DNA of 64,000 nucleotides from an uncultured virus (IMG/VR IMGVR_UViG_2875882051_000003) (Duplodnaviria; Heunggongvirae; Uroviricota; Caudoviricetes), in the IMG/VR virus record IMGVR_UViG_2875882051_000003; one strand, given 5' to 3'. Of the stretch, positions 1,218 to 18,031 are shown piece after piece. Below the pieces are notes generated by a model. It had not been told where the DNA came from, did no database searches, and was given only the letters and a program-made list of their open reading frames with translations. The number at the start of each line of letters is the position of its first letter. Position 1 is the stretch's first letter. Position numbers and translations under genes: made by a program.

Positions 1218-1265
1218 CTTTAGTTTTTAAGCAATTATCTTTGGACAAAATAAATACATAAAAAT

Positions 1266-1480: not shown

Positions 1481-2176
1481 ATGTCAATGGTTAATTACGA
1501 AAATGAATTATATAAAACTCTAGATGAGGAGATAGATAAAGAACTAAATAGTAAGATAACAAGACCTATTTATTTAATAGTTAATGATGCAATAAAAGTA
1601 TATAACGAACTAATAAAGAATGAAAGTCATGTATTTTCAGGAGATTACTTTGAAGAAATAAGGGGTAGATTAATAGGGTATGCGGTTAAAAGAGCATTTG
1701 ATCCTAAATTAATAACAGGAAATTTTCCGTTTAATGTTACTTGTGCAAAAATGAACTTTAAACAGAAGAGACCTGAATTAAGAAAAAATAATATTTTATT
1801 AACCATTTCTCAAGTAAGTGATTTAAGCAAGTTACCAACTAAATCTAAATATAAGGAGAAATATTCAGAGGGAAATTCTTTAATAGCTAAACAGTTAATG
1901 ATTAGGGAAGCGGATGAATTAAAGGTAAAGGATATACCGTATTATGGAATAATAAGATATAAATATGCTGAAGGTGAATTGGAACACCTTGACATTGTTA
2001 TTCCAGATGTTAAATATAGAAGTATAATAAAAACAATACCGATACCAATAATTTCAGAAATGAGAAGATTTGACGAAGGAATCAAAGAGGATTTAGAAGA
2101 ATCAAGTCCTTTGCTCCAAATGGAAAATTTGAAAGAACAATTGGAGAAAGATATAAAAGATAAAAAAATTAAATAA
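1481..2176 (+). CDS. Hypothetical protein, candidate toxin partner of the downstream HTH-peptidase (RmrT-like position)
   Basis: 231 aa ORF with RBS GAGGTG, ending 18 bp before the HTH-M78 gene; TTGACA and TACAAT boxes upstream. Confidence 0.6.
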   Translation: MSMVNYENELYKTLDEEIDKELNSKITRPIYLIVNDAIKVYNELIKNESHVFSGDYFEEIRGRLIGYAVKRAFDPKLITGNFPFNVTCAKMNFKQKRPELRKNNILLTISQVSDLSKLPTKSKYKEKYSEGNSLIAKQLMIREADELKVKDIPYYGIIRYKYAEGELEHLDIVIPDVKYRSIIKTIPIPIISEMRRFDEGIKEDLEESSPLLQMENLKEQLEKDIKDKKIK

Positions 2177-2194
2177 AATAAAAGAGGTAATTTT

Positions 2195-3331: not shown

Positions 3332-3635
3332 ATTAACAGAATTAATTTATTGTAATTCTAAAATATAGATATATAGCTAAAAAATATTAATATAAGAGAA
3401 CTAAGAGACAACATCTATAGAAATATAGGTGTTTTATTATATCTGTAACTTGAGATTCCTTTATGATTAGATGCATAAAAAGTAGATGAAAATGTATAAA
3501 AAAGTAAATCATTATTTTAATTATAATACAATAATGTTATAATAATCCTATATTCCGTAAAGATGGGTTACGGTGGTTGTGCGTTTTCCGCCTTGGGCTA
3601 TTAGAAATAATGGTCTAAGGGGGTGGTATTAGATT

Positions 3636-3800
3636 GTGATAATTGGAATGTTAATATTATCAATAACACTAATTCTAGTGATAATGATTAATAGAGCTTT
3701 AAAAAGCAATTCAAAAAGTTGTGAATTCAACTTAGAGATTAACATAAAGGGTTTTAAAGTAAACTTTAAGACAAAAGAAAAGGACCCTCCCATCAAGTAA
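3636..3800 (+). CDS. 54 aa hydrophobic peptide, putative type I toxin (not in ORF track)
   Basis: GTG start after RBS AAGGGGGTGG; MIIGMLILSITLILVIMINRALKSNSKSCEFNLEINIKGFKVNFKTKEKDPPIK has one TM segment and a basic tail; TGtTATAAT at 3535-3543. Confidence 0.7.
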   Translation: MIIGMLILSITLILVIMINRALKSNSKSCEFNLEINIKGFKVNFKTKEKDPPIK

Positions 3801-3890
3801 AGTCCTTTTCTAACCCAAAATAACATCTAATAGCCCTAAAATTAAAAACGTTCTAGGGAAAGTTAGTGTTACAGCACTAACTTTTCTTAT
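3776..3890 (-). ncRNA. Putative antisense antitoxin RNA
   Basis: Minus-strand extended -10 TGaTATAAT at 3903-3895; hairpin AGAAAAGGAC/GTCCTTTTCT (3776-3811) overlapping the toxin stop codon. Confidence 0.5.
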
Positions 3891-3951
3891 TTATATTATA
3901 TCAAATATTTAAAGAAAATAAACATCAATTTTTATAAGTTAATTATAGTTA

Positions 3952-4710
3952 TTATTTATTACAACAAGTCAATGCCCATTGTGTCTTAGAGAAATCTTTT
4001 GGTACGAGTAAATCTTTACTGGAAAGAAAATCTTTCAATTTAAAATATTGTTGACTTGCAATATTTTCATCAGTTGCTTTAAAAGAAATTTCCGCTATTA
4101 TATCTGTGTTATCGTTTGTTTTTCTTGACCAGATGTCTATGTCTATATCTATGTCATTCCATATTCCAGTATATTCTATAGAATGAATTGGACAATAAGC
4201 TTTAGAATTAGAGATTTGTCCTATTCCCCAATTTTTGTTTTCTTTCCAATTTATGAATTGTTCAGGAGCATTTTCAATAAACATTTTTTGTAATTCTTCG
4301 ATAGAAGGAGGGTATGTGGGTAAATCATTAAGTATATCCTTGTTTCTTTCCAATGACATACTTAATGATTTATTTGTATATCCCCATTCAAGTTCTATCT
4401 TATATTCGCTGTCAATTTCTTTGAAGTCGTTTTGAAGTTCGCTTAATGCAGAATTAATATCATTGTCATTTATTTTATATCTTTTTTTATACGTTAGCTC
4501 ATATTTATTTGTTTTTTTACGATTGCGTAGAATCCAGCCAGCTTTATACATATCTTGATCGGCTGTATCAATGAATAGAATTTCTCTTAATTTAGGCTTA
4601 TCAGATATTTGAAAAAGATTAAATATGTCTCCTTTGAGTTCGTAAGCCTCACTCAAAACTTTTGATGGGTCAATAAAAAATTTAATTTCATGTTGTTCTA
4701 TTAATTTCAT
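3952..4710 (-). CDS. CYTH/triphosphate-tunnel-like protein
   Basis: N-terminal ExK (HEIKFF), ILRNRK..YELTYKKR, C-terminal AEISFK. Confidence 0.6.
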   Translation of the reverse strand: MKLIEQHEIKFFIDPSKVLSEAYELKGDIFNLFQISDKPKLREILFIDTADQDMYKAGWILRNRKKTNKYELTYKKRYKINDNDINSALSELQNDFKEIDSEYKIELEWGYTNKSLSMSLERNKDILNDLPTYPPSIEELQKMFIENAPEQFINWKENKNWGIGQISNSKAYCPIHSIEYTGIWNDIDIDIDIWSRKTNDNTDIIAEISFKATDENIASQQYFKLKDFLSSKDLLVPKDFSKTQWALTCCNK

Positions 4711-4948
4711 ATCATTTGCCTCCTTAGTATATCCAAAGTTAAAATATAAAAAATTTATTTTTAATGTGCCCTTAAGGTTTACACATTATTCGATAAAGCT
4801 AAAAATGAAGTGACTAATTTAAATACTACATTAGTTAAAAATGGGTATGAAAGCATAAAAATTTGAATTTTAATTTCTAATGAATAAAAACAAATATTAT
4901 GGGAAGCGTATAACAGGAAATATATATTTAATGAAGGAGGTAGTAAAA

Positions 4949-6817
4949 TTGGAAAATAAAGTAATGAAACTAGTTAATTACACAATTAGAAAAAGTACTA
5001 ATACGATTGATGAGATTCCTTGGAATATTAAGATGATTAAAGCGACTGATTTTTGGAAGAAAGGCGATAATGGTAGAGGGAGAACAATAGCAATTATAGA
5101 TACGGGATGTGATAAGAATCATCCTGATTTAAAAAATAGAATTATCAAGGGTAGTAAAAATTTTACATCTGAAGACAATTGGGATGAAAATAATTTTAAG
5201 GATTATGATGGACATGGAACTCATGTTGCAGGAATTATAGCAGGAAGCTTGAATGAAAATGGAGTAGGTGTCGGAGTAGCTCCAGAGGCAAACTTATTGA
5301 TTCTAAAAGCTGTGAGGAAAGGCGAGGTTATAACTCCTGAATGGAAGCCGATATGTATAATCGAAGCAATTAATTATGCTATAGAATTTGGGAATGTAGA
5401 TATTATATCAATATCACTTGGATGGTATAAGAACTTTCCGGAATTACATGCTGCAATTAAAAGAGCAGTAGAAAAAGATATATTGGTAGTATGTGCCGCT
5501 TCTAATGAGGGAGATGGTAATGGTGATACCGCTGAAATAACCTATCCAGGAGCTTATAATGAAGTAATTTCAGTAGGAGCAATTGATTCAAATAAAAAAG
5601 TGGCCAATTTTAGCAATTCAAATCAGGAAGTAGATTTAGTGGCTCCTGGTGTAAAGATACAATCAACATTCCCTAATAATGATTATGTTACATTAGATGG
5701 TACTTCAATGTCAGCACCGCATGTTTCAGGGGCATTGGCTCTTATTATAAATTGGGCAAAAAAATCTTTCGGTAGAGAATTATCAGAACCTGAATTATAT
5801 GCTCAATTAATTAGAAGAACCATATCTTTGGGAAATAAGAAAACTCTTGAAGGAAATGGTATGCTATATTTAACTGCAGTAGATTTATTGGAAGATTTTC
5901 TTCATAGTGGAAATAATCTATTAAAAGATGAACATATAAAAATGTTAAAAGATTTTTCAGTAGGCTCTGGTTTTAATACTAAATTTTTAGGTGAAGAATT
6001 TGAAATACCATTCCCTAAAGTAATAGGAAAAACTAAAGAAGATGCACTAAATGATGGAGAAATATTTAATTTTAATAATTTTTCTATAGTTATGAATGAA
6101 AAAACAAAATTTGCTATTTATAGTGTGTGTAATATAGATGAAAATAAATATGTAAAGATATCAAGAACCGATGATTGGCATTTTGACCAAAGAATAAAGG
6201 AAGAAAATCAGGTTGGAAATGAGTTCTATAGGAATAATTATTTGGATAGAGGACATTTAACCAGAAGAAAAGATGTATGTTGGGGAACTGAATCTCAGGC
6301 AAGAAAAGCAAATTATGATTCGTTTTGCTTTGCTAATATTTGCTTTCAAGATCATGATTTCAATACTGGTACATGGAATGATTTTGAAGATTGGATTCTT
6401 GATGAATTAGAAGGAAAAGATATGAAGATGAAAATGTCCATATTTACAGGTCCTATTAATAGAGATAGTGATAGAATTTATTGTGGAGCAGGAAGAGGTC
6501 AAGATTGTGGAGTTAGAATTCCAGCAGGTTTTTGGAAAGTAGTAATTTATGTAGATAGTAATAAAGAATTACGTTGCTTAGCCTTTATGGGAAAACAAGA
6601 TGAGTTTTGGTATGATGAAACTGGTAAAAAGCTTGAAAAGCACAAAGTATATCAAGTACCTTTAAATCTTATAAGTGAACTTACAGAAATAGAATTCGAT
6701 AGTAGTCTATATAATGCTAATCCTTTATATTATTGGCCAAATAAAATTACTGCAAGAAATAATATTGCAACTCCACAAATTCATCTAATAAGTGAAAGGG
6801 ATGATATTATTTTTTAG
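4949..6817 (+). CDS. S8 subtilisin fused to a DNA/RNA non-specific (NucA/EndoG-type) endonuclease
   Basis: Triad IIDTG, HGTHVAG, GTSMSAPH; C-terminal DRGHL..N..Q..FN..W motif; probable TTG start at 4949 after AAGGAGG. Confidence 0.85.
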   Translation: MENKVMKLVNYTIRKSTNTIDEIPWNIKMIKATDFWKKGDNGRGRTIAIIDTGCDKNHPDLKNRIIKGSKNFTSEDNWDENNFKDYDGHGTHVAGIIAGSLNENGVGVGVAPEANLLILKAVRKGEVITPEWKPICIIEAINYAIEFGNVDIISISLGWYKNFPELHAAIKRAVEKDILVVCAASNEGDGNGDTAEITYPGAYNEVISVGAIDSNKKVANFSNSNQEVDLVAPGVKIQSTFPNNDYVTLDGTSMSAPHVSGALALIINWAKKSFGRELSEPELYAQLIRRTISLGNKKTLEGNGMLYLTAVDLLEDFLHSGNNLLKDEHIKMLKDFSVGSGFNTKFLGEEFEIPFPKVIGKTKEDALNDGEIFNFNNFSIVMNEKTKFAIYSVCNIDENKYVKISRTDDWHFDQRIKEENQVGNEFYRNNYLDRGHLTRRKDVCWGTESQARKANYDSFCFANICFQDHDFNTGTWNDFEDWILDELEGKDMKMKMSIFTGPINRDSDRIYCGAGRGQDCGVRIPAGFWKVVIYVDSNKELRCLAFMGKQDEFWYDETGKKLEKHKVYQVPLNLISELTEIEFDSSLYNANPLYYWPNKITARNNIATPQIHLISERDDIIF

Positions 6818-6855: not shown

Positions 6856-6892
6856 ATGCCACAACATTCAGAAATGAATTTGTGGTATTTTT
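6856..6892 (+). repeat. Cassette-boundary hairpin, copy 1
   Basis: ATGCCACAACATTCAGAAATGAATTTGTGGTATTTTT. Confidence 0.9.
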
Positions 6893-6994
6893 GTTATTTT
6901 ATAGAATCTAATTAACAAATCATGTTACAATTATATTACATAAATATGCTAACTTTTGATAGAAAATTAGAAGTAAATTAAAGATAGGGGATAA

Positions 6995-7273
6995 GTGATG
7001 GAGAAAAAATTCATTAATGGACAAGTTTATAAAGAAATTGATTTTGAAGAAGTTGTAAGTAGTCATAATGACAAAGGGGATATCCTTTATCACATTTTTT
7101 ATGGGGATGTAGATTGGCATCGAGATGGAAATTTACAGAAGGCTCTATGTATTTTTATGAAATATAATAATAAAATAAGTTTTCAAACTCCAGCTAATGT
7201 ATTATTGACTGATCTACTTATAGTTGAAGAAGCTATAAGTAGACTTAAAGCTCGTAATATGGAATTTAAGTAG
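6995..7273 (+). CDS. Hypothetical protein
   Basis: 92 aa ORF with RBS AGGGG. Confidence 0.7.
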   Translation: MMEKKFINGQVYKEIDFEEVVSSHNDKGDILYHIFYGDVDWHRDGNLQKALCIFMKYNNKISFQTPANVLLTDLLIVEEAISRLKARNMEFK

Positions 7274-7413
7274 TTAGTATATCAGAAGATACAAAAATAA
7301 ATTTGAGCTATTATAGATCAGTGTTATATATTCAGGAGCAGAAATGAATAATTTATTGACAAAATAAGAGTTGTTTTATGATAGAAATATCTAAATATAG
7401 GAGTGGATAAGAC

Positions 7414-8079
7414 ATGCCAAACCATTTTGAATTAAAAGTACTCGAAGGAAAGTTGGGATTAAAACTAACACGAGAGAAATATGCAAGAATAAATAATAAA
7501 AGTTCATTTCAAGGAACCATGATTGGTTGTGATTATGTTAATGAGAAAATGAGAATATATACAGATGAATGGTGTAAAAATCATTTTGAAGAATGTATGA
7601 AAAATTATGACCTAAATATGGAGTATTTTTCTTTATTAGATAATAATGAATTTAACTTAGAAATTGATAAATTTCTAAAACAAAATGAGGGGTTTGTTGA
7701 AGTATCAGATCTAAACCTATATCATATGAAACCAGGATATTATTTAATGGTTCTTGATGAATATTGCCAAGTATATATTGGTACCACCAATGACATTAAA
7801 AAACGCATACGGCAACATTGGAGTGGTAATAAGCATTTTGACAGGCTTTTATTACCAATGGGGGCGGTTGATTCTTCGATACTTTCAATTGATAGTTTTA
7901 GAGCTTTTGATACCACAAGAATTTTTGCATATATAACAGAGAAAATATTTGATAACGAAGATAAATTTATAAATGAATTTTCATCTAAATTTGTATGTAA
8001 TAGGCTTTCTGGTGGTAAGTTTAAAGGCATTGGATTGCTTTCGAGTATAATGATGATGAAAAGTCGTAAATTAAAGTAA
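7414..8079 (+). CDS. GIY-YIG nuclease family protein
   Basis: GYY..VYIGTTNDIKKRIRQH, with later conserved E and N. Confidence 0.8.
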   Translation: MPNHFELKVLEGKLGLKLTREKYARINNKSSFQGTMIGCDYVNEKMRIYTDEWCKNHFEECMKNYDLNMEYFSLLDNNEFNLEIDKFLKQNEGFVEVSDLNLYHMKPGYYLMVLDEYCQVYIGTTNDIKKRIRQHWSGNKHFDRLLLPMGAVDSSILSIDSFRAFDTTRIFAYITEKIFDNEDKFINEFSSKFVCNRLSGGKFKGIGLLSSIMMMKSRKLK

Positions 8080-8112
8080 TATATAATGATCGGGGAACAA
8101 TAACTGAGTAAA

Positions 8113-8149
8113 ATGCCGCAATATTCAGAAATGAATTTGTGGTATTTTT
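8113..8149 (+). repeat. Cassette-boundary hairpin, copy 2
   Basis: ATGCCGCAATATTCAGAAATGAATTTGTGGTATTTTT. Confidence 0.9.
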
Positions 8150-8257
8150 ATTATTTTATAGAATTATTTTGAAGACATATATTATAATAATTATATGCTA
8201 CTATATGATAATAGATTATAGAAATAGTAACAAGAGTACATTTAAGGGGGATTTATT

Positions 8258-9352
8258 TTGGGATTTAGAATGAGAAAGTCATTTAAAATAGCACCAGGGG
8301 TTAGGTTAAATGTAGGAACAAAAAGTGCAGGAATTAGTGTGGGTGGTAAAGGTCTAAGATATAGTGTAAATAGTAAAACAGGATCACGTGTAACTGTTGG
8401 AGTTCCAGGTACAGGAATTAGCTATACAACATCCGGAAGAAGTTATAATTCGGCTGCATACTCAAGAAGTCAAGAACTAAGAAGATTAGAAAGGGAACAG
8501 GCCAAACTTGAAGAATTAGAAAGAAATAAGTTAATAGTAGAGATATATGAAAATAAAATTGAGATGATAAAATCTATACATAAAGAATGTGATAATAAAA
8601 TTGATTGGATTAAAATGGAGAAATCAAAGCCGCCATATTATCCTGAAAAGGGTGAAAAAGGAGTCAATGAAGCTAATGCGATAGAGAAACTTCAAGCCTA
8701 TAGACCATCATTTATAGATAAATTATTTAGAAGACAGGATAAAAAAATAGAAGGGTTTAGGTATCTCATCGAAGTAGCAAAGAAAGAGGACGAAAAAGAA
8801 TATAACTCTTGGAAGGAGTTAGTTGATATAGCTAAAAAAATTAACAATGGTGATATACAAGCATATTTAGATGTGATAGATGAATTTAAACCACTAGATG
8901 ATTTGGTTGAGTTTGGAAGTGGTTTTGAATTTTTTTTGGAAGATCCTGATCTGATAGAAGTAGATTTCGATGTGAATACAGAAAGTATTGTTCCAAAGGA
9001 ATGTAAATCATTAACTAAAACAGGAAAAGTATCAACTAAACAAATGACTAAAACTAAATATTTTGATTTACAACAAGATTATGTGTGTTCTTGCACTTTA
9101 AGAATAGCGCGAGATATGTTTGCCTTATTACCGCTTAATTATGTAGTGGTAAATGCGTTAGAAAAAAGGTTAGATACATCAATAGGAAAAAGGGAAAATG
9201 AAGTAATATTATCAGTAAAGATAGATAGAGAAACGTTAGAAGGCTTAAATATGAATTTAATAGACCCATCAGATAGTATGGAGAATTTTGAGTGTAATAT
9301 GAACTTTAAGAAAACTGGTGGATTAGTTAAAGTAGATAGAATAATGGACTAA
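8258..9352 (+). CDS. DUF4236-domain protein
   Basis: N-terminus GFRMRKSFKIAPGVRLNVG...GVPGTGISY is typical of DUF4236. Confidence 0.8.
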   Translation: MGFRMRKSFKIAPGVRLNVGTKSAGISVGGKGLRYSVNSKTGSRVTVGVPGTGISYTTSGRSYNSAAYSRSQELRRLEREQAKLEELERNKLIVEIYENKIEMIKSIHKECDNKIDWIKMEKSKPPYYPEKGEKGVNEANAIEKLQAYRPSFIDKLFRRQDKKIEGFRYLIEVAKKEDEKEYNSWKELVDIAKKINNGDIQAYLDVIDEFKPLDDLVEFGSGFEFFLEDPDLIEVDFDVNTESIVPKECKSLTKTGKVSTKQMTKTKYFDLQQDYVCSCTLRIARDMFALLPLNYVVVNALEKRLDTSIGKRENEVILSVKIDRETLEGLNMNLIDPSDSMENFECNMNFKKTGGLVKVDRIMD

Positions 9353-9412
9353 ATGCATCGTAGTGTAATTAGCTTGAAATCAATATAGTAATATTAAAAT
9401 TAGTTTAGGAGG

Positions 9413-9802
9413 ATGTTTATGACTGATTATGCTAATTTAGCAAATACAGAAGTTGATAAATTGCTAAAAGGTGAAATCAAAGATATGTATGGAAAATACA
9501 TCGAAGAAATTATATGTGAATTGTTGATTTGGGCTTTACATTCAAATAAGAAAGCAAATGAATTTTTTATTAATATCCTAGATGACAGTGAATTATTAGA
9601 ACTGTTATTTTATATTTTGTTAGATGAAAGTGAAGACTATTCGAATGATGCCAGAATCGCAGCAGCTCATTACATTGGAAAATTTGATGAAGATCTTTTA
9701 AAAAAGCATAAAGATGAAATTCTATACGCACTTACTTATGAAATTCATGCATTACATCCTTTTGTAAATCAAAAAAGGCCTAGTTGGTTAAATGAAAAAT
9801 AA
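9413..9802 (+). CDS. Hypothetical helical protein
   Basis: 129 aa ORF with RBS AGGAGG. Confidence 0.7.
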   Translation: MFMTDYANLANTEVDKLLKGEIKDMYGKYIEEIICELLIWALHSNKKANEFFINILDDSELLELLFYILLDESEDYSNDARIAAAHYIGKFDEDLLKKHKDEILYALTYEIHALHPFVNQKRPSWLNEK

Positions 9803-9850
9803 TAATTAATAAAACTGAATATAGAAAATAGATAATAGGAGAATCTTATT

Positions 9851-9877
9851 ATTCAGAAATGAATTTGTGGTATTTTT
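9851..9877 (+). repeat. Cassette-boundary hairpin, copy 3 (left arm truncated)
   Basis: ATTCAGAAATGAATTTGTGGTATTTTT. Confidence 0.85.
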
Positions 9878-9951
9878 CTGCTATTTATGCAAAAATAAAA
9901 AGTAAAAATGATATAATTTACTTACATGTTTTTATTATGGGAGGGATAATA

Positions 9952-10674
9952 ATGTTCAAAATTGAAAGAACCGAAGAAGGCGAATTACGTTTTGTAGGAC
10001 AATTTGATTTAGGTTCGCTTGGTAAATTTCCAAGTGAAAAAATTGAATTTGATATGAACGAGTTTGCACCATTAGACAATGATGTAGATTCTGATTGCGA
10101 AGATAAAGAAAGTAAGTATTATCAAAATAGATTTTCTAGATTATCAAAAATTATTAGAACAGATATGAGTGAAAATGAAAAACTAGAAAAGCTTGGAGCT
10201 TTTTATGAAGAAAAGCAAAAAGAAGTTATTGAAAATTTAGATGTAATTGAAGATAGATTTTTAAAATTCATTATTATGGACTTTGTTGATTGTGATTTCC
10301 CATTTTGGGAAGAAGCTGATGGGAGCTTAACATCATTTATAATTCCAGAAAAAATGCCTAATCATTTATCAAATAATGAAGAGGAATTAATAGATTTAAT
10401 TTATGGTGATCTACCAGATAATATTTATGAGCTGATTGATACAGAATATGAGCCAGGCAAAAATGTAATGTCGGCGAGGGAAATTTGTTTGAAGTATTTT
10501 CCTATGATAGATATAGATAATCTTATTTCAACAATATATCCAGATATATTAGTATTAAATGGTGATATCTTAATATTTCAGTGTTCAAGTAATGTTGGAG
10601 ATGGGATGATTATATGTTCGGCTTATGCAGAGATATTACCAAATTATAAATTCGATGATTGGCATAATCACTAA
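9952..10674 (+). CDS. Hypothetical acidic protein
   Basis: Probable start ATG 9952 after GGAGGG; the track start at 9859 lies inside the repeat. Confidence 0.7.
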   Translation: MFKIERTEEGELRFVGQFDLGSLGKFPSEKIEFDMNEFAPLDNDVDSDCEDKESKYYQNRFSRLSKIIRTDMSENEKLEKLGAFYEEKQKEVIENLDVIEDRFLKFIIMDFVDCDFPFWEEADGSLTSFIIPEKMPNHLSNNEEELIDLIYGDLPDNIYELIDTEYEPGKNVMSAREICLKYFPMIDIDNLISTIYPDILVLNGDILIFQCSSNVGDGMIICSAYAEILPNYKFDDWHNH

Positions 10675-10859
10675 GTTAGAATATTAATTTTATATAACAA
10701 ACAAAAGGAGAACAAAATATAGAATATTCAAATCATGATGAAGTAACAATTTATGTGAATGATGAGCTGTATAAAAGGATAGAGATCGAAGAATGGAATG
10801 ATACATTTACAGTATAGTAATTTAGATTTTTATTGTTTTGAAATTATAAAGGAATCTAT

Positions 10860-10899
10860 ATACCACAAAATTCAGAGAAATGAATTTGTGGTATTTTTT
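10860..10899 (+). repeat. Cassette-boundary hairpin, copy 4
   Basis: ATACCACAAAATTCAGAGAAATGAATTTGTGGTATTTTTT. Confidence 0.9.
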
Positions 10900-10993
10900 G
10901 TTGTTTTATAGATACAAATGGAAGATGATGCTACAATAAAAGTATATTGATAGTAGAATGAAATAATCTAAATTTATGAGGGGGATGTAAACA

Positions 10994-11803
10994 ATGAATA
11001 TTGTTGCATTAAAATCAAATAGAAAAGAATATTATTCAATTTTTCATTTCATTAATATGACAGAAGTTGAACGAGATAATTATAGAGATAATATTGTCTG
11101 CATGGAGTGTGGTGTAGATGCTTATTATAGGAAGCCTACAAAAGATGGTAAAATTGCATGTTTTGGTGCAAAACATATAGACGGGTGTGGTATGTCCAGC
11201 GGTAATAAAAATAAAAGTTTAGATGGCGATAAAGAAACTAATGAGATTGATATACAAACTTCTGAGTTTGATATTAGATGGAATTACATAAACTCGAGTG
11301 ATGTAACAAAAAAAGCAGAAGTTGAAAATCAGGATGAAGCTGTCATAAAAAATACAAGAAAATACACAAAAAAGCCATCGATAGAAAAGAATATAAAAAT
11401 CAGTTTGAATCAAATTTTGGAATTTGCAGAATTAGATATTATTAAAGATCAAGAATTTTCAGTAAATATAAATAATAAGAATTTATTACTGAAAGATATC
11501 GTTATGAATATTGAGGAAATTAATGATAACAGCATAGATAAAGATATGTTTTTCTGGGGAAATATATCAAGTTTTAATGGTGATTATATAAATACAGTAT
11601 ATAGAAATAAAGTAAGTATAATAATTGATAAATCTATAAGTTTAAAATTCTGGAAAACATATAGGAATAGAATTTTAAAGATAATAAAAAATAATTCAGT
11701 CATAATCTTTGGGAAAGCCAAGAAATCCCAAAAAGGTAACTATTACATATTGCTTAATGATATTAAGACGTTTTATATCAAGAATGCTAGGAAAAATAAT
11801 TAA
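10994..11803 (+). CDS. Hypothetical protein with N-terminal Zn-ribbon-like motif
   Basis: CMEC..CF..H...C motif. Confidence 0.65.
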   Translation: MNIVALKSNRKEYYSIFHFINMTEVERDNYRDNIVCMECGVDAYYRKPTKDGKIACFGAKHIDGCGMSSGNKNKSLDGDKETNEIDIQTSEFDIRWNYINSSDVTKKAEVENQDEAVIKNTRKYTKKPSIEKNIKISLNQILEFAELDIIKDQEFSVNINNKNLLLKDIVMNIEEINDNSIDKDMFFWGNISSFNGDYINTVYRNKVSIIIDKSISLKFWKTYRNRILKIIKNNSVIIFGKAKKSQKGNYYILLNDIKTFYIKNARKNN

Positions 11804-11817
11804 AGGAGTTTGAAAAA

Positions 11818-13014
11818 ATGAATATATTAGTCATAGGAAATGGGTTTGATTTAGAACATGGATTACCAACAATGTATAAGGATTTTTTGAAATATATTAG
11901 AATAGTAGGAGCTATATCAGATCTTGGAAAAGATGAGAATATTGAAGTTGTGATAGATAGGTTAACTGCAAATGATGCTTATTTTAATAAATATTTTAAA
12001 GAGATTTTTACTAATGGAATGCTAGATGAAAATAATATAATTAATGAATTAATAGAATTAAGTAAAAATAATATTTGGATAAAGTATTTCAGAGATTTAA
12101 ATTTTAATGGAAATAAAGGGTGGATTGATTTTGAATATGAAATTTCACATGTAATTAGAAGCTTAGATTATATGAAAAAATATAGATATAGAACAAGAAT
12201 CCAAAAAGAAATTGATGTTAGTAAGAACAGGGATGCTAACAATATAGAAAATCATATTGAAAAAATTATTGGAGAATTATCTAAAAGAATAGAATATCTC
12301 AATGAAGATGAATATAACAAGGAAATAACTAAAAGACTTCAGCAACACTTAGAGAATTTAATTAGATGCTTAGAAATATATTTAGAAGATTGTGTTGGTA
12401 AAATAGATACAGCATATTTAGCGCCAGATATAAAAGATATTAAATTTGATAAAGTATTAAGTTTTAATTATACCAATACTTACGAAAGAATATACGATTT
12501 TAATAATAAAGAGATAGAATATCATTATATTCATGGAAAAGCTGATATTACTCGTGCTGTTGACGATAATAATATGGTTCTGGGGATAGATGAGTATCTT
12601 GATGATGAATCTAAAGACAAAGAGTTAGAATTTATTGCTTTTAAAAAATATTTTCAAAGAATTTATAAAAAGACAGGAAACGAATATAGAAAATGGATTT
12701 TGAGAATGAAAGATATTGAATATGAAACTATAGGTGAATGCGATGAAATAGGTCAATACCAAACACAAAAAATTAAAAATGAAGTATATATATTTGGTCA
12801 TTCACTTGACATAACAGATAAAGATATTATAAAGGAATTAATTGAATGCCCAAATACAGAAACAACAATTTTTTATTACGATAAAGGTGTATATGCTCAA
12901 CAGATTGCTAACTTAGTAAAAGTAATTGGACAAGATGAGCTAATAAAAAGAGTTTCGGGAGCAAATCCAACTATTGTTTTTAAACAGCAGCAAAAGAAAA
13001 TTGAGAGAAATTAG
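11818..13014 (+). CDS. abiH: AbiH-family abortive-infection protein (SIR2-like)
   Basis: ILVIGNGFDL.HGLPT.Y.DF, SFNYT, YIHG, IFGHSL..D motifs. Confidence 0.8.
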   Translation: MNILVIGNGFDLEHGLPTMYKDFLKYIRIVGAISDLGKDENIEVVIDRLTANDAYFNKYFKEIFTNGMLDENNIINELIELSKNNIWIKYFRDLNFNGNKGWIDFEYEISHVIRSLDYMKKYRYRTRIQKEIDVSKNRDANNIENHIEKIIGELSKRIEYLNEDEYNKEITKRLQQHLENLIRCLEIYLEDCVGKIDTAYLAPDIKDIKFDKVLSFNYTNTYERIYDFNNKEIEYHYIHGKADITRAVDDNNMVLGIDEYLDDESKDKELEFIAFKKYFQRIYKKTGNEYRKWILRMKDIEYETIGECDEIGQYQTQKIKNEVYIFGHSLDITDKDIIKELIECPNTETTIFYYDKGVYAQQIANLVKVIGQDELIKRVSGANPTIVFKQQQKKIERN

Positions 13015-13046
13015 TTTTTATTTATATAGCTATAAGGAGTGAGTTC

Positions 13047-14456
13047 ATGTATAGATTTAGGTCAACTAAGTATCTTTTAGATGAAGAGTTCAAGGAACTT
13101 GAAAATCAGGAAATTTATTTTGCTCCACCAGAACAACTTAATGATCCGATGGAAGGTTTTAAAGATATATTTTGGCAAGGTGATGAAATTCTTTGGAAAA
13201 ACTTTTTGAAACATTATCTTTTGTGTTTTGAACATATTGTTTCCATCTGGAGTGTAATTGGAGAAAGCGAGAGAATAGAGGGAAATTATATTCCAGTATT
13301 CAAAACGGAAACAGAATTGTTAACAGAAGAACATAAGCAAAGATTTAGTGATATAAAGGAAAAATTCTTTTCAAATAAGTGTATTTCAAATCTGCCTAAG
13401 TTACTATCTAGCAGAAAAGTACCTATAAGAATAAATGAGCTAACAATGTATCTAGAATTTGTACATAAATTTGCATTTGATTCTATAAACTTAGTGTACT
13501 CGCAAAAAGGTCTTATGGATAGAATTGAAATTTTAGGAGATAAGGCTGATGACGTTACCACTTTTCAAAAAATTATCGAAGGCGCAAATAGGTTCTGTGA
13601 AGATATTAATTATAAAGATAATGGCGAAGAAATATTTGAAGTACTAAAGAATACGAGCGATGAACTTAAATTGATATCTTATTATAATAAAGATATTGAT
13701 TTTAATCATCATAATATGAAGTTTATAATTGAAACATTTCCAAGTTCTTATTTATCAATATTAGATAAACTAATATATCAAAAATGGTATACAGCTTGTT
13801 TTATGGATAATTATCATAATTCATCAGTTTGGGGAAGTTATGGAGATAATCATAAAGGAATTTGTTTAGAATTTAAAACTAAGAAAAAGGAAGGGGATGA
13901 GTATTTAACATTAAAGAGTATTAAAAGCTGTGGTACTACAGGTGATATAGTTGAAAAACGTGATTATGAATTGAAAAAAGTTACATATCAAAAAAAATTT
14001 ATAGAAATAGATTTTTTTAAATCTTTAGGACGTTTATCAATAACAAAACTTAAGTCGCAATGGTATGTGGATGAGAATGGGAATAGTAGCAAATATATCG
14101 ATTTGGGAAAATTTGATGACGATTGGAGAAACTTATATTGGGATGATTTTTATAAGAGTGTTACGACTAAAACTGAAGATTGGAAATATGAATGCGAGTA
14201 TAGAATGGTTATAGATGAATACTTTACAGACTATGGAGAAATAGAAAAGAGAAAGCTTATATACGATTTTAATGATTTAGATGGGATTATATTTGGAATT
14301 AAAACATCAGATTCAGATAAAATTAAAATTATGAGAATAATTGAAAAAAAGTGTAGAGAAACTGGGCGTGATAAGTTTAATTTCTATCAAGCTAAATATT
14401 CTCATGAAACAGGACAAATTGAACGCAAAAGGCTTAATTTACTGAAATTCAAATAA
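13047..14456 (+). CDS. DUF2971-domain protein
   Basis: YRFR..LNDPMEG, ACF..WGSYGDNHKGICLEF, K..DWKYECEYR, IIFG motifs. Confidence 0.8.
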   Translation: MYRFRSTKYLLDEEFKELENQEIYFAPPEQLNDPMEGFKDIFWQGDEILWKNFLKHYLLCFEHIVSIWSVIGESERIEGNYIPVFKTETELLTEEHKQRFSDIKEKFFSNKCISNLPKLLSSRKVPIRINELTMYLEFVHKFAFDSINLVYSQKGLMDRIEILGDKADDVTTFQKIIEGANRFCEDINYKDNGEEIFEVLKNTSDELKLISYYNKDIDFNHHNMKFIIETFPSSYLSILDKLIYQKWYTACFMDNYHNSSVWGSYGDNHKGICLEFKTKKKEGDEYLTLKSIKSCGTTGDIVEKRDYELKKVTYQKKFIEIDFFKSLGRLSITKLKSQWYVDENGNSSKYIDLGKFDDDWRNLYWDDFYKSVTTKTEDWKYECEYRMVIDEYFTDYGEIEKRKLIYDFNDLDGIIFGIKTSDSDKIKIMRIIEKKCRETGRDKFNFYQAKYSHETGQIERKRLNLLKFK

Positions 14457-14530
14457 ATTAAACTTAAATATTAATAAATAAGTTGTAAAGTCAGTATAAA
14501 TGTTCATTTTATTAAAAATATCTAATTTAT

Positions 14531-14568
14531 ATACCACAACATTCAGAAATGAATTTGTGGTGTTTTTT
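14531..14568 (+). repeat. Cassette-boundary hairpin, copy 5
   Basis: ATACCACAACATTCAGAAATGAATTTGTGGTGTTTTTT. Confidence 0.9.
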
Positions 14569-14724
14569 GTGTTACTTAATAATGCCATATTGGGAAAATG
14601 TGCTATAATAATAGCAGACTCATAGAAGCTTATATAATGATATTTTGAATTATAAAAATATGTTTGTAAAAATAATTTATAATGTGTAGATAGTGATTAG
14701 TGACTAAGTAAGGAGGATGTAAAT

Positions 14725-15483
14725 ATGGCGGTACAAAAGGGTAAGAATGAGAAATTAAGACAAATAATAAAGATGTTATATGAATATGAATTAAGACATA
14801 ATAACAGAAATTATAGTGATATTTATGAAAAAGTAATTTGCGAGTACTTGGAATTTTTTCCAAGTGAAGATATTGATCTTAACAGCGATAATTTTAAAAA
14901 TTGTTATCCTGATCCAGATAACTCTTTAACAGGATTAAGTTTTGAATTAGCAGGAAGAGGGTTAGTAACTCCTAAAATTATTTCAAGGGCAGGAATATCA
15001 AACTTTGCTTTTAAATTAACTAGCAATGGTAAGGCTTTGTTTGAAAATAAAGAGGAGTTAGAAAAACAATTTCCAAGTGTTGAAGATAACTTCGCATTTG
15101 TAGTTATGTCATTTTCTGAAAATAAAGTTTTAAAAGATGCATATGAATTAGGCATAAAAGCTACAATTAAAAAATGTGGGTATAACTGTATAAGAGTAGA
15201 TGAAATTGAGCACAATCGCAGAATTACTGATAAGGTTATTGAATGTATCAAATCAGCAAAATTTATTATAGCCGATCTAACAGAGCAAAGGCCAAATTGT
15301 TATTATGAACTTGGATTTGCCCATGCATTAGAAAAAGAGGTTATTCATTTAGTTAAAGAGGGAGAAGTAATCCATTTTGATATAAAAGACTACAATTTTA
15401 TAGTTTACTCGAGTATAACGGAACTGGCAGAAAGATTAGAGGAAAGAATAATTAATACTATAGGAAAAATGGATAAGGAATAA
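14725..15483 (+). CDS. Nucleoside 2-deoxyribosyltransferase-like (TIR-like fold) protein
   Basis: FVVMSF, IADLTEQRPNCYYELGFAHAL, HFDI motifs. Confidence 0.75.
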   Translation: MAVQKGKNEKLRQIIKMLYEYELRHNNRNYSDIYEKVICEYLEFFPSEDIDLNSDNFKNCYPDPDNSLTGLSFELAGRGLVTPKIISRAGISNFAFKLTSNGKALFENKEELEKQFPSVEDNFAFVVMSFSENKVLKDAYELGIKATIKKCGYNCIRVDEIEHNRRITDKVIECIKSAKFIIADLTEQRPNCYYELGFAHALEKEVIHLVKEGEVIHFDIKDYNFIVYSSITELAERLEERIINTIGKMDKE

Positions 15484-15917: not shown

Positions 15918-16340
15918 TTATTTTACAAGTCGTCTAATCGCAGAAACTATTGAATCTGTTGACCAATTAACAATCTCATTTGCATTATTAGAAACATAAG
16001 TAGGTGTTATGACGTTTCCATATGGTTTGATACCTAATATAGGTTTTCCCATACGTTTTGATTCATCGATTTCATATTGAATCCAATCTTTATATTGTAC
16101 ATACATTCCAGCAATAACAATTGTTATCTGAGATGGTGATATTTTATCTGTTATTTTTTTAGCTATATCAGAATTTGTTAAAGGAGTTCCAACAGGAAAC
16201 AAGGGTTTTTCTTTTGGCGCAGAGTAATTATAGTAACTAAAATTTTTGGCATTATCTAAAAGGTTAACTAATCTTGTATAATCGTCACCATATTTCCAAG
16301 CGTGACTTATAAAAAGTCTGTAATCATATAAACTAGGCAT
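15918..16340 (-). CDS. TIR-domain protein (MTH538/DUF1863, ThsB-like)
   Basis: LFISHAW, WIQYEI, KPILGI motifs. Confidence 0.85.
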   Translation of the reverse strand: MPSLYDYRLFISHAWKYGDDYTRLVNLLDNAKNFSYYNYSAPKEKPLFPVGTPLTNSDIAKKITDKISPSQITIVIAGMYVQYKDWIQYEIDESKRMGKPILGIKPYGNVITPTYVSNNANEIVNWSTDSIVSAIRRLVK

Positions 16341-16410
16341 AATTGTATATCATCCTTTCTTTATTGTAGTATAATAGTTATAATAATTATTTTATTATGG
16401 AGGTACTTTC

Positions 16411-16605
16411 ATGCAGATAAAGAAATATAGAAAGAAACCAATAATAATAACAGCTTATCAAACCGATAGAGAACTTCTAATTAATACTTTAGAAGGGACA
16501 CTAAAAGCAAATGTTGGAGATTATATTATAACTGGAGTGAATGGAGAGCAATATCCTTGCAAACCAGATATATTTGAAAAAACTTATGAACTAGTAGAAG
16601 AATAA
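16411..16605 (+). CDS. Small PGDYG-like protein
   Basis: [43 protein letters not shown]. Confidence 0.7.
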
Positions 16606-17111
16606 TTACTTGCGGACTGGTTTTGAGAAGAACGATTTTTAGAATTGATATTTAGCCAATCCTTCCTTTCATTACTCATTAGATTTTCACAGGTTATTAT
16701 TAATAGTTCTTCTGGATCAGTACAATTTTTGTAATCTCCACATTTTGTTTCAAAGAAAATTTTTTCTCTAATTAAATTTTCACAGATAGTCCTATATTTA
16801 AGCCAATTTTCTTGATACTTATTTAATTGAATTAAGCTTGAGAATATGCATATAATTGAAGACAAAGATGTAGTAACAATTTTAACTTCAAACGATAAAG
16901 TATCAGAAAATATCACTATAATAGGAATAAGAGAATTGAAGATAAGGGTGCAGATGGTGAAAAATTTAAAACCTTTTTGCGCCTTTTTACTTTTATTGTC
17001 ATACCATTGTATTTGTTCAGTAAGCCTTTTTTCTATATAACTTGATCTGTCAATAGCTGATGTTCTATTATCTTCATTAATAATATTTTTAAAAAATTTA
17101 CAAATTTTCAT
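16584..17111 (-). CDS. DUF4231/SLATT two-TM protein
   Basis: RL..QI.WYD.KS, two hydrophobic helices, W..YR...E.L..E. Confidence 0.8.
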
Positions 17112-17131
17112 AATTACCTCTATTTTATAGT

Positions 17132-17596
17132 TTATTTATTATTTAATGAATTAAATTTCATTTTAATAATCTCAACTGGAACATAATAGCTGCTAGCTAC
17201 TTGTTCTAATGAAAATCCATTTAGCTCAAGCTGATTCACAGCTAAATCATCAATTAAAAATTCAGCAGCAAAAACGTTAGCCTCGTATTCAGATTTAATC
17301 TTGCTTATATAATTATTTTCATTTATAAAAAAACATGAAGATTTAGGATGTAGAACTGCATGTCCAATTTCGTGAGCCAAAACAAAGCGTCTTTCAATTT
17401 CAGATAAAATTGAATTAATAAAGATGACTTTGTTTTTTCTTATGTATTTGTACATACCCCACACGCTACCCAAAGGTTGAATGATTACAGTAATATCTAG
17501 GCATTCTGCTAATTCATAAGGGGATGAAGTATTGTATTTCTTCTTTAGTTTATTAATAATTTTCCTAATGTAATCCCCAGTCAAATTAACCACCAC
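17132..17596 (-). CDS. ImmA/IrrE-like anti-repressor metallopeptidase
   Basis: RFVLAHEIGH and E.EAN.FAAEFL; directly downstream of the repressor. Confidence 0.88.
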   Translation of the reverse strand: MVVNLTGDYIRKIINKLKKKYNTSSPYELAECLDITVIIQPLGSVWGMYKYIRKNKVIFINSILSEIERRFVLAHEIGHAVLHPKSSCFFINENNYISKIKSEYEANVFAAEFLIDDLAVNQLELNGFSLEQVASSYYVPVEIIKMKFNSLNNK

Positions 17597-18031
17597 CTAT
17601 TTCTTAAATTTATCTGGTGTATATTTCTTCTTATTCTTTATTTTAATTTGTTCTAGGGCCACATTCATTGCAGTTTCAATAAGATCAAAGTCTTCATCTC
17701 TAAGTTCTATGCCATTATAATATTTAGTTCCGTCAGTTTGTTCTTTAAAGTCATCCATTATGTTTTTGAGATCCTTTTGAATATCTTTTTTATCTTTCTC
17801 AGTTAAGTTAATAGCTGTATTAGGTTCTGATGAATCAGATTTTCCAAGCAAGTAATCAAGAGAAACATTATAATATTCAGCAAATTTTAGTTTCATTTCA
17901 TCACTTGGAGTTCTAGTATTTGATTCATATTGAGAAAGTGTACTTCTAGCAATATTGAAGCGCTTTGCCAGTTCGGTTTGTGAAATCTCTTTTTGAAGCC
18001 TTAGTAATTTTAATCGTTCACCTAAATTCAC
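17597..18031 (-). CDS. CI/ImmR-like XRE repressor
   Basis: XRE HTH; divergent from cro-like gene. Confidence 0.9.
   Translation of the reverse strand: MNLGERLKLLRLQKEISQTELAKRFNIARSTLSQYESNTRTPSDEMKLKFAEYYNVSLDYLLGKSDSSEPNTAINLTEKDKKDIQKDLKNIMDDFKEQTDGTKYYNGIELRDEDFDLIETAMNVALEQIKIKNKKKYTPDKFKK

Follow-up and report, generated by a model that had tools for sequence, protein, structure and literature searches.

Closest described systems

The closest known analogues of the locus are the PeSL cassettes of T4-type phages, phage morons, and the SPRITE repeats of pneumococcus. In the accounts drawn on here, the PeSL (promoter-early stem-loop) of T4-type phages is a small unit that couples a sigma-70-type promoter with a terminator stem-loop and is present in many copies in a plastic genome region, immediately 5′ of accessory genes (Arbiol et al. 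2010, PMC2839356; Comeau et al. 2014, PMC4122927). The stems contain G-T pairs, recombination between copies has been proposed for modular shuffling, and mini-circles and measured activities are known (PMC2839356; PMC4122927).

The window, a 64,000-nucleotide stretch of DNA, contains a myovirus-like Clostridium prophage, in which a repeat array has the serine integrase, just beyond the left end of the window, on one side and cI/ImmA genes on the other. As far as the PeSL accounts go, the two systems share a repeated promoter and putative terminator composite, accessory genes, G-T stem pairs, and a proposed role in shuffling. The PeSL belongs to lytic T4-like myoviruses of Gram-negative hosts and drives early genes, whereas the present array belongs to a temperate Clostridium phage, and its cassettes are anti-phage defence genes in an integrase-repressor island. 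The PeSL stem-loop is described in or around the promoter, while here a predicted T-tract terminator lies ~40 nt upstream of the -10. Unlike the PeSL, the predicted hairpin here is dispersed in host chromosomes too. The PeSLs so described have no sequence relationship with the present unit.

Morons are accessory phage genes with their own promoter and terminator, and the slot of morons and defence hotspots is set by conserved flanking core genes. Their descriptions are not known to feature one boundary sequence that recurs from cassette to cassette. Defence hotspots of temperate phages and satellites were reportedly described by Rousset et al. in 2022. The present locus likewise has accessory and defence genes in a fixed, variable prophage slot, here between integrase and repressor.

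SPRITE is described as an AT-rich interspersed repeat of a Firmicute, with a stem and then a U-rich tract, near gene 3′ ends; it is thought to be co-opted as a terminator and has no linked transposase (2011, PMC3049150). Its duplex measures 18 bp, convergent gene pairs are its preferred setting, and it is reported only from pneumococcus and S. mitis (PMC3049150). By that description, the present hairpin is similar in its AT-rich dispersed stem, U-rich tract, place near gene 3′ ends, and lack of a linked transposase. In contrast, its stem is 13-14 bp and interrupted, 46 of 65 copies are followed by a co-oriented gene, and in many cases the hairpin runs on into a promoter module and stands in an array between cassettes.

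Integron attC sites, too, close each of a series of co-oriented cassettes at its 3′ end with an imperfect palindrome that leaves a base unpaired. The present locus differs in its T-tract and in lacking IntI, core motifs, a common Pc promoter, and a fixed crossover point.

The prophage island and its cassettes

The genes of the island and its surroundings are as follows.

1..88, - strand: upstream region of the large serine recombinase (phage integrase), the gene itself lying just left of the window
198..6817, + strand: accessory island, left half, with patatin, RmrT/RmrA, a 252-aa gene (- strand), and a subtilase-NucA fusion (Pfam, PADLOC)
6995..8079, + strand: cassette 1, a 92-aa ORF and the UzuA (Uzume, GIY-YIG) gene at 7414-8079 (PADLOC, Pfam)
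8258..9802, + strand: cassette 2, a DUF4236 gene at 8258-9352 and a 129-aa gene at 9413-9802 (Pfam)
9952..10674, + strand: cassette 3, a 240-aa gene (79% identity to an L025 gene)
10994..14456, + strand: cassette 4, a 269-aa gene, AbiH at 11818-13014, and DUF2971/PDC-S31 at 13047-14456 (Pfam, PADLOC)
14725..15483, + strand: cassette 5, a TIR-like or nucleoside deoxyribosyltransferase-like gene (PADLOC TIR effector, 8e-13; Pfam match under the cut-off)
15918..18031, - strand: convergent block with ThsB-like TIR, SLATT/DUF4231, ImmA at 17132-17596, and a cI-like repressor at 17597-18031 (Pfam, PADLOC)
22534..23454, + strand: phage RecT-family single-strand annealing protein (Pfam RecT, 5.9e-37)

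Positions 5-88, reversed, match 10157-10238 of locus L021 and 15220-15311 of L015 at 80%; in L021 the match is directly 5′ of a Resolvase/Recombinase/Zn_ribbon_recom gene (10242-11897). A covariance model search found no repeat copies in 198..6817. To the right, the array splits Uzume (UzuA, PADLOC 3e-97, Pfam GIY-YIG), DUF4236, AbiH with PDC-S31, and the TIR-like gene. The 240-aa gene of cassette 3 has no match in Pfam and PADLOC searches, and its L025 homologue stands behind a full repeat copy. Homology to other loci covers 8109-9346 (81% identity to L015), 9404-9909 (82% identity to a single-gene cassette in L021), and 11818-14449 (an AbiH and DUF2971 cassette in L003).

According to Pfam and PADLOC, the genes lying between repeat copies are mutually unrelated, and thus the repeats were not copied together with their genes. 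This speaks against the rather unlikely possibility that the units are ordinary terminators and promoters, alike through local duplication or shared ancestry, with no role in recombination or mobility. In its favour, some cassette junctions have no repeat, such as 9352-9412 between the DUF4236 and 129-aa genes.

The five repeat copies

Five co-oriented copies, one of them decayed, start at 6856, 8113, 9850, 10860, and 14531. Each consists of an interrupted hairpin and a T-tract, followed 40-43 nt later by a -10 hexamer.

6856..6893, + strand: R1 hairpin by RNA fold, stem 6856-6888, bulge C6865, loop GAAA, T-tract 6889-6893
6894..6931, + strand: R1 promoter module, TGT-TACAAT, -10 at 6926-6931
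8113..8188, + strand: R2, hairpin 8113-8145 (bulge T), T-tract 8146-8150, TATAAT 8183-8188, no TGn
9850..9917, + strand: R3, decayed, with upper stem, right arm, and T-tract intact, TGA-TATAAT 9912-9917
10815..10839, + strand: relic of an older copy, read from the sequence, with degenerate right arm, T-tract, and start of a promoter module
10860..10937, + strand: R4, hairpin 10860-10894 (bulge A, loop GAGAAA), T-tract 10895-10900, TGC-TACAAT 10932-10937
14531..14609, + strand: R5, hairpin 14531-14563 (bulge C), T-tract from 14564, TGC-TATAAT 14604-14609

The sequence GAATTTGTGG occurs on the + strand at 6876, 8133, 9861, 10882, and 14551. This 10-mer alone is unremarkable (7 matches at up to one mismatch, where 4.4 are expected). 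The 21-mer ATTCAGAAATGAATTTGTGGT stands out, with 4 exact copies against 0 in 100 shuffles, and the fifth copy (10882) differs through a 2-nt loop insertion. Repeat searches gave two families, one of 28 nt (5 copies, 86-100% identity) and one of 82 nt (4 copies, 62-100% identity).

The predicted folds have energies of -16.8 kcal/mol for R1 (z -5.9; covariance-model score 63.2 bits), -16.3 for R2 (z -6.5), -14.6 for R4 (z -5.5), and -14.4 for R5 (z -4.7). The left arm of R3, judged decayed by alignment with the intact L021 and L025 copies, is unpaired, and its fold reaches only -7.0 kcal/mol (z -1.1). At the relic, a contig of run X4 passes from 10839 directly into a promoter module.

The original prediction agrees with the sequence on the five sites and their positions, the arm substitutions giving G·T on the + strand in the window copies, and the -10 distances, with TG in four.

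Hairpin structure and covariation

In each of the four full copies, a lower stem of 9 bp and an upper stem of 5 bp are interrupted by one unpaired base (C, T, A, C, as first noticed) and capped by a GAAA loop (GAGAAA in R4). Only 3-4 of the pairs are G-C, the stems being AT-rich, and the + strand fold is stabler than the - strand fold in 3 of the 4 folding copies. The proposed covariance check upheld the pairing. Across 25 distinct copies, the paired fraction of cells is 93.1%, falling to 49.7% or less with the partner slid, and both sides are changed at 5 pairs. An independent set of 40 copies from whole genomes, drawn with a model built from the first set, gives 91.4% against at most 43.2%, with 43 cells at 8 pairs changed on both sides. 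Wobbles favour the + over the - strand by 28 to 3, and by 37 to 3 in a second count; the first sample was drawn by exact-word matching, with the loop and right arm held constant, which inflates this bias and the apparent GAAA conservation. The five T columns 3′ of the stem are invariant in 26 copies.

A single unpaired base is the form in the four full window copies. In the wider family, the interruption is mostly a 2x1 internal loop, with the neighbouring pair open in 15 of the 25 copies of the first set and 32 of the 40 of the second, and at least two diverged copies (L020:116, L074:2253) have no interruption. The form of the interruption varies and descent explains it; a bulge kept by selection is not supported.

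A co-oriented ORF ends within 400 nt upstream in 56 of 65 copies, mostly at 5-100 nt; the others have an opposite-strand neighbour (5) or none (4). Four of these five (L021a, L020a, L064:5855, and L069:2208, the last directly 3′ of the integrase) carry the promoter module. The covariation, one-strand G·U wobbles, invariant T-tract, and post-gene position point to an intrinsic terminator.

The comparison with attC proposed at the outset was not sustained. A view of the hairpins as attC-like folded single strands, recombined site-specifically by an integrase in an integron-like array, would suit the imperfect palindrome with an unpaired base after each co-oriented cassette, and chromosomal arrays with small accessory genes of integron-cassette kinds. 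It is nevertheless very unlikely. None of 45 scanned window ORFs has a tyrosine recombinase domain, the sole recombinase at hand is the phage large serine integrase, and the integron integrase model TIGR02249 exceeds its cut-off in 0 of 4 genomes with the hairpin family. The attC core motifs are RYYYAAC and GTTRRRY, and both are missing from the arms. The cassettes have their own predicted promoters, the T-tract and post-gene position suit a terminator, and homology end points do not fall at a single fixed base.

Putative promoter module

The -10 hexamers start at 6926, 8183, 9912, 10932, and 14604, which is 40, 40, 41, 40, and 43 nt after GTGG, and all window copies except the second have the TGn extension. 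The spacer had been thought to diverge, but conservation extends over its initial ~20 nt and a TTGG box, and the near-fixed distance therefore reflects common descent of an ~80-nt unit. Such descent is also what the view of the units as ordinary regulatory sequences offers for the spacing. TAYAMT lies 33-43 nt past the stem in 15 of 26 copies (exactly 40 nt in 8), 11 of the 15 with TGn. In 23 aligned composite copies, the hexamer is in register in 21 and TGn is present in 15. The module variant tracks the downstream gene in both comparable cases: R2 is closest to the L015 copy, likewise 5′ of a DUF4236 gene, and R3 matches L069:6739 before the 240-aa gene.

By its sequence, the block downstream of the hairpin is a conserved extended -10 promoter module. 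The -35 region matches TTGACA poorly. A consensus promoter scan called 133 sites against 135.7 expected, promoters in this AT-rich DNA not being separable from background, and among the five units gave a full -35/-10 ending at the proposed -10 for R5 only. The strict terminator rule of the scan skips interrupted hairpins. RNA run X9 contains only a relative's copy, at depth <1.

The block between hairpin and -10, with its TTTTATAGAAT and TTGG boxes, could instead be an operator through which one phage or host DNA-binding protein co-regulates the cassettes, the hairpin being secondary. The boxes are kept in most of the 23 composite copies yet match no -35 consensus. This idea is highly improbable, since palindromic symmetry is not evident, the boxes are missing in 11 of 26 copies (hairpin alone), and no regulator is linked with the arrays.

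Related arrays and dispersal of the hairpin

At least five further loci, in other prophages and genomes, have arrays of this kind with other defence cassettes, and where a cassette is shared its neighbours differ between loci, as the proposed portability of the unit would have it. L069/L025, whose ImmA is 87% identical to that of the window, has an integrase and then five copies separating a 214-aa gene, a PIN_12 gene, a 573-aa gene, and a pair of 240-aa and 154-aa genes. The order in L003 is AbiH with PDC-S31, PDC-S15 twice, Avs5, and then a cI-like HTH gene. The L020 array has an OLD/AriA-like gene and a SIR2 gene, L017 has three copies, and L021 has two close to its serine recombinase. Homology stops inside or at the hairpin in four cases: at 8109 against L015, at 9859 against L025, in the contigs of runs X3 and X4, which leave the window sequence at 14558 within the R5 right arm, and between L066 and L068. 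These breaks weaken the ordinary-unit explanation, as does the presence of one core both around different cassettes at five or more other loci and after unrelated host genes; it gains from the finding of no copy-to-copy joints among the reads and contigs examined (contigs only, low depth).

Of 81 genomes sampled from the same bacterial family, 29 have matches to the hairpin family, and four genomes have at least 42, 14, 10, and 4. In many chromosomal copies, conservation reaches into additional flanking sequence that bears a short outer inverted repeat (AATTG / CAATT). The chromosomal arrays include four glyoxalase genes, GNAT, DJ-1/PfpI, and a Cass2/GyrI-like gene.

Such dispersal and flanks would also fit a selfish MITE- or REP-like repeat, moved as folded ssDNA by a Y1 (IS200/IS605, RAYT-type) or other transposase, with termination secondary or co-opted. 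Y1 enzymes recognise interrupted hairpins folding on one strand, as these do, and the wobble bias suits ssDNA as well as RNA. This origin is quite improbable given the invariant T-tract and the orientation tied to the upstream gene (56 to 5). Copy number does not track Y1_Tnp genes: all that the genome with 42 or more copies contains is a 65-aa fragment at the end of a contig, and the genome with 14 has a broken fragment. A target-site duplication and a filled/empty site pair were not found among the copies.

Meaning for the prophage and its family

The units are very probably composite terminator and promoter cassettes, as the original prediction held, on the evidence of fold, covariation, wobble bias, T-tract, position past genes, and TGn-TAYAAT. 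The terminator part would have a lower stem of 8-9 bp and an upper stem of 5 bp with an asymmetric interruption between them, a variable loop on top, and at least five T after the stem; as + strand RNA, it would end the transcript of the left-hand cassette. An A/T-rich conserved block would close with the extended -10 ~40 nt past the stem and start the transcript of the right-hand cassette. With both at the boundaries, the defence cassettes would be insulated, self-expressed, moron-like units. R1, R2, R4, and R5 fold accordingly; with the left arm of R3 lost, insulation would not hold at every boundary.

We infer termination, initiation, and recombination at these units from the repeats, their gene context, and the reshuffled cassettes. 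The chances that they play a real role in cassette exchange are about even. The 28-nt core, near-identical across copies and related prophages, would offer a homology patch for cassette gain, loss, and exchange, probably via phage RecT, a candidate enzyme for short-homology exchange, or host recombination. The reading as a whole is favoured, if not strongly: an ~80-nt terminator-promoter unit would let defence cassettes be self-expressed and supply homology for their exchange, and its hairpin half, not new here, belongs to a terminator-like repeat family dispersed in the chromosomes and prophages of this bacterial family.

The prophage and its accessory island

The window holds a myovirus-like, temperate Clostridium prophage with an integrase, cI and ImmA, and its structural genes are nearest to those of phiCD27-like phages (72%). 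Positions 5-88 match, in reverse, the sequence that immediately precedes the large serine recombinase genes of two other loci (L021 and L015), which indicates that the integrase gene starts at the window's left edge and runs outward. RecT is followed by terminase, portal, sheath, tape measure and GH25 lysin genes to about 61 kb, and then by host transport genes. The accessory island between integrase and repressor takes up about 17 kb of the roughly 61 kb of prophage in the window, and carries in its right half an array of five units, each a hairpin with a putative promoter, R1-R5, at 6856, 8113, 9850, 10860 and 14531.

Landmark genes of the prophage
17132-17596, - strand: ImmA
17597-18031, - strand: cI-like repressor
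22534-23454: RecT

Genes around the five units
Array left of R1: S8-NucA
R1 to R2: 92-aa gene and UzuA
R2 to R3: DUF4236 and a 129-aa gene
R3 to R4: 240-aa gene
R4 to R5: 269-aa gene, AbiH and DUF2971/PDC-S31
Right of R5: TIR-like gene, convergent with ThsB-like, SLATT, ImmA and cI genes

The island outside the array (198-6817 and 14725-17111) is also defence-like, with a patatin phospholipase, RmrT/RmrA and a subtilase-non-specific endonuclease fusion; the defence-like genes of 14725-17111 are TIR-like, ThsB-like TIR and SLATT/DUF4231. The stretch 3410-3945 comprises 537 nt without a long ORF and is 96.8% identical to the metagenome contig L017 (1555-2091), far above other parts of the island. 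Within it lie a 54-aa ORF (3636-3800), hydrophobic in its N-terminal half, and a terminator-like hairpin (3854-3889) of 16 perfect base pairs. The stretch may encode a small membrane toxin or form a module resembling type I toxin-antitoxin systems.

Copies of the unit in the window

The word GAATTTGTGG occurs on the + strand at 6876, 8133, 9861, 10882 and 14551. This 10-mer alone is not significant, with seven matches at one mismatch or fewer against 4.4 expected. For the 21-mer ATTCAGAAATGAATTTGTGGT the excess is significant, with four exact copies in the window against none in 100 shuffles, and the fifth copy departs by a 2-nt loop insertion. A repeat search of the window returns a 28-nt family of five members (86-100% identity) and an 82-nt family of four. 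The five sites of the original prediction are real, and the five copies lie within 7.8 kb of the island. The -10 hexamers are also correctly positioned in that prediction, at 40, 40, 41, 40 and 43 nt past GTGG in R1-R5, with a TGn extension in four of the five. Between the third cassette and R4, 10700-10860 contains a short ORF remnant together with the remains of an older copy of the repeat; in the compared sequencing runs X3, X4 and X9 this stretch occurs in a variant form that bears a 26-nt insertion at 10801-10808.

Fold and folding strand of the hairpin

Four of the five window copies pair over 9 bp in a lower stem and 5 bp in an upper stem, with one unpaired base (C, T, A and C) between the two; the loop is GAAA or GAGAAA, and at least five T follow the stem. 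Their fold energies range from -14.4 to -16.8 kcal/mol (z -4.7 to -6.5), and in three of these four the + strand folds more strongly than the - strand. The remaining copy, R3, has lost its left arm and does not fold stably (-7.0 kcal/mol, z -1.1). As its flanks are homologous to intact copies in L021 and L025, R3 has decayed locally and is not a clean junction.

A covariance model built on 10 copies finds 26 non-redundant + strand copies in the window and the loci obtained by word scans. In 25 distinct rows, 93.1% of pairing cells are paired, a share that falls to 49.7% or less with the partner slid; both-side changes occur at five pairs, and wobbles favour the + strand by 28 to 3. The word scans fixed the loop and right arm exactly and so pushed variation onto the left arm, which is rich in A and C and in which transitions yield + strand wobbles in any case; this inflates the bias. 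A recount uses 40 copies from a covariance-model search of whole genomes, in which both arms vary. Here 91.4% of pairing cells are paired, against at most 43.2% when slid, eight pairs, in 43 cells, have changed on both sides (ACCACA/TGTGGT to ATCGCA/TGCGAT is one instance), and wobbles favour the + strand by 37 to 3. Because pairing, both-side changes and wobble bias hold in both sets, the helix is maintained, with one strand as the folding strand. This fits a sense RNA, and a single DNA strand would fit too.

The original prediction described one kept bulged base. An interruption does persist across the family, and its form is not a single bulge: in 15 of 25 and in 32 of 40 copies the adjoining pair is a T.T mismatch, giving a 2x1 internal loop, and a few copies have 2x2 loops or no interruption (L020:116, L074:2253). 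The interruption has no apparent sign of selection beyond descent. A selected GNRA loop is rejected for GAAA, as the word scans required this sequence and loops found by the model vary from 2 to 9 nt. In L063 (1501-1567), a copy with both arms intact has a much longer loop, forming a 67-nt element in place of about 40 nt, which shows that large loop insertions are tolerated.

Terminator reading

The best-supported reading of the hairpin is that of a putative intrinsic (Rho-independent) terminator. Five T columns past the stem are invariant in 26 copies and present in all five window copies. A co-oriented ORF ends within 400 nt upstream, mostly at 5-100 nt, in 56 of 65 copies; among the others, the upstream neighbour is on the opposite strand in five and absent in four. 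The invariant T-tract, the stronger + strand fold in three of four copies and the 56 of 65 copies that follow a co-oriented ORF argue for action in RNA, where the element would stop transcription. The RNA run X9 has reads of a relative's copy only, at a depth below 1. A read start at 10866 in this run is rejected as an RNA end, since it coincides with the point from which the relative's sequence departs. A search of the whole window against Rfam at gathering thresholds gives no matches.

Candidate promoter module

Past the stem, a TAYAMT hexamer lies at 33-43 nt in 15 of 26 copies, at exactly 40 nt in eight of them, and 11 of the 15 have TGn; the remaining 11 of the 26 copies are hairpin-only. 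When 23 composite copies are aligned, they comprise a homologous block of about 70 nt with the order T-tract, GTTATTTTATAGAAT, TTGG box and RTGn-TAYAAT. The -10 hexamer is in register in 21 of the 23 and TGn is present in 15, and all five window copies have a TATAAT-like hexamer. As the block is homologous across the composite copies, the near-fixed spacing reflects shared ancestry in which indels were few. A rival reading of the conserved block as an operator is very unlikely.

The -35 region matches its consensus poorly. A consensus promoter and terminator scan is uninformative in this AT-rich window, where its sites are no commoner than in shuffles (133 sites versus 135.7 expected); R5 is the only unit called at the proposed -10 (ATGCCA, 16 nt, TATAAT). 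The assignment of a candidate sigma-A extended -10 promoter, at which transcription would start, draws on conservation. The module is present in four of the five copies with an opposite-strand upstream neighbour (L021a, L020a, L064:5855 and L069:2208), as is expected if it supplies the promoter. L069:2208 stands directly after the integrase, first in its array. The module variant goes with the downstream gene in both comparable cases, namely DUF4236 (R2 and L015) and the 240-aa gene (R3 and L069:6739).

Arrays elsewhere and reshuffling of cassettes

Arrays of units are also found in L003, L017, L020, L021 and L069. The IMG/VR provirus L069/L025, whose ImmA is 87% identical to that of the window, has a serine integrase followed by five copies set between 214-aa, PIN_12 and 573-aa genes and a 240-aa and 154-aa pair. 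L003 contains AbiH and PDC-S31, two PDC-S15 genes and Avs5, and then a cI-like HTH gene. L020 contains OLD/AriA-like, ParA-like and SIR2 genes, L017 has three copies, and L021 has two copies 4 kb from a serine recombinase.

The same cassettes stand beside other neighbours. DUF4236 is accompanied by the 129-aa gene in the window and by a different 141-aa gene in L015, and in L021 the 129-aa gene is a single-gene cassette flanked by two copies. The AbiH and DUF2971 cassette has one extra first gene in the window. Homology stops at or inside the hairpin in four cases (8109 against L015, 9859 against L025, 14558 in contigs of X3 and X4, and L066 against L068); other cassette junctions are without the repeat. 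These comparisons lend support to the portable terminator-plus-promoter unit of the original prediction. The comparisons turned up no two close relatives that differ by a single unit, and no copy-to-copy joint, as in mini-circles, was found in four runs of low depth (contigs and one RNA run).

The composite would insulate each defence cassette and drive its expression in the lysogen. The shared 28-nt core would offer homology for cassette exchange, with the phage RecT as a plausible agent; annealing proteins work with tens of nucleotides of homology. Termination, initiation and recombination are all steps that we infer from sequence.

A hairpin family dispersed in host genomes

In four genomes that bear the loci, the covariance model matches at least 42, 14, 10 and 4 copies among the 150 candidates scored per genome, and 29 of 81 sampled genomes of the same bacterial family have matches at E <= 1e-6. 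The copies follow host genes such as rubrerythrin, glyoxalase, GNAT, phosphoribosyltransferase and ferric-reductase-like genes. The majority of the chromosomal copies belong to a longer form whose flanks are conserved (L065 2006-2300, L067 289-480, L064, L023, L004 and L072). This form has about 45-55 conserved nt upstream with stops in three frames, and a GCAATTCTAA box past the T-tract. A second common block of about 70 nt (GACGTAGTAA ... GTTCTTTGAAAATTGAATAAT), present in eight of 27 aligned copies, may be another promoter module.

In chromosomal arrays (L064, L065, L066, L067, L068 and L070), the hairpin lies between single small accessory genes of integron-cassette-like kinds, comprising glyoxalase, GNAT, DJ-1/PfpI, flavodoxin, MgtC, HAD, rubrerythrin and a Cass2/GyrI-like AraC regulator. 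A 540-nt hairpin and glyoxalase unit is duplicated at 94% identity on two contigs of one genome, and the homology stops in the next hairpin.

A 19-mer search of genome contigs gives 15 matches, of which nine without the left arm are taken as chance and dropped; L003, L004, L006, L012 and L015 are kept, and L024 is dropped as a duplicate of L017. The exact 21-mer is found in one IMG/VR contig, and the nearest virus record (G001) has no copy of the unit. Among named phages (INPHARED), blastn with the 101-nt unit gives four weak Staphylococcus phage matches (E 0.08), taken as chance.

A wider reading, which we regard as rather unlikely, makes the hairpin family a common currency of gene-cassette exchange across the bacterial family, integron-like without an integron integrase. 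Promoter-gene-terminator units would be swapped at the core of about 28 nt by RecT-type annealing or an unrecognised recombinase, stocking both prophage defence islands and chromosomal accessory-gene arrays (glyoxalase, GNAT, DJ-1, Cass2-like).

Comparison with known systems

Integron attC sites have the core motifs R'' and R', RYYYAAC ... GTTRRRY. Neither motif is present in the arms of the five units, none of the 45 window ORFs scanned contains a tyrosine recombinase domain, and the integron integrase model TIGR02249 is over its cut-off in none of four family-bearing genomes. Integron cassettes are promoterless and read from one Pc, whereas each window cassette is preceded by its own -10 module. 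The original suggestion that the bulged hairpin recalls attC therefore fails on integrase, core motifs and promoterless cassettes. A REP/RAYT or IS200/IS605-type hairpin is unlikely, as Y1 transposase genes do not track copy number. The genome with at least 42 copies has no more of PF01797 than a 65-aa fragment, and that with at least 14 has a broken one.

Among described systems, the PeSL of T4-type phages comes nearest. The window units are its analogues and not members, since they belong to a temperate prophage with integrase, cI and ImmA and phiCD27-like structural genes. The accessible text of two reports describes PeSL as a promoter and terminator stem-loop composite, repeated in hyperplastic regions upstream of ORFans, that mediates modular shuffling and mini-circles (PMC2839356, PMC4122927). 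The window units are alike in that they join a promoter module to a terminator-like stem-loop, recur within a plastic region and stand ahead of accessory ORFs. In contrast, PeSLs belong to lytic T4-type myoviruses and have early promoters, and the window units belong to a temperate Firmicute phage, with another layout and no homology. SPRITE, which the accessible text of PMC3049150 presents as a dispersed terminator-like repeat of pneumococcus, is similar by description, as an interspersed stem and U-tract near gene 3' ends. Within the accessible literature, no account was found of the Clostridium repeat or of repeated terminator-promoter boundaries in prophage defence islands. The text of PMC2267715 counts stem-loop families of C. 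tetani and C. perfringens and leaves their sequences out, and its supplements may hold the family.

Implications

If the units act as proposed, many unrelated defence genes would be independently expressed in the lysogen with no read-through into the repressor operon, and the trading of defence genes among related phages would be explained. The repeat is also a practical flag. Scans with it find defence-type cassettes in several genomes, many with genes of no known family, such as the 240-aa, 269-aa and 129-aa genes of the window and the 214-aa and 573-aa genes of L069. With this finding the PeSL idea would reach beyond the lytic T4-like phages of Gram-negatives and take in temperate Firmicute phages, and it would be linked with a terminator-like repeat dispersed in the host chromosome.
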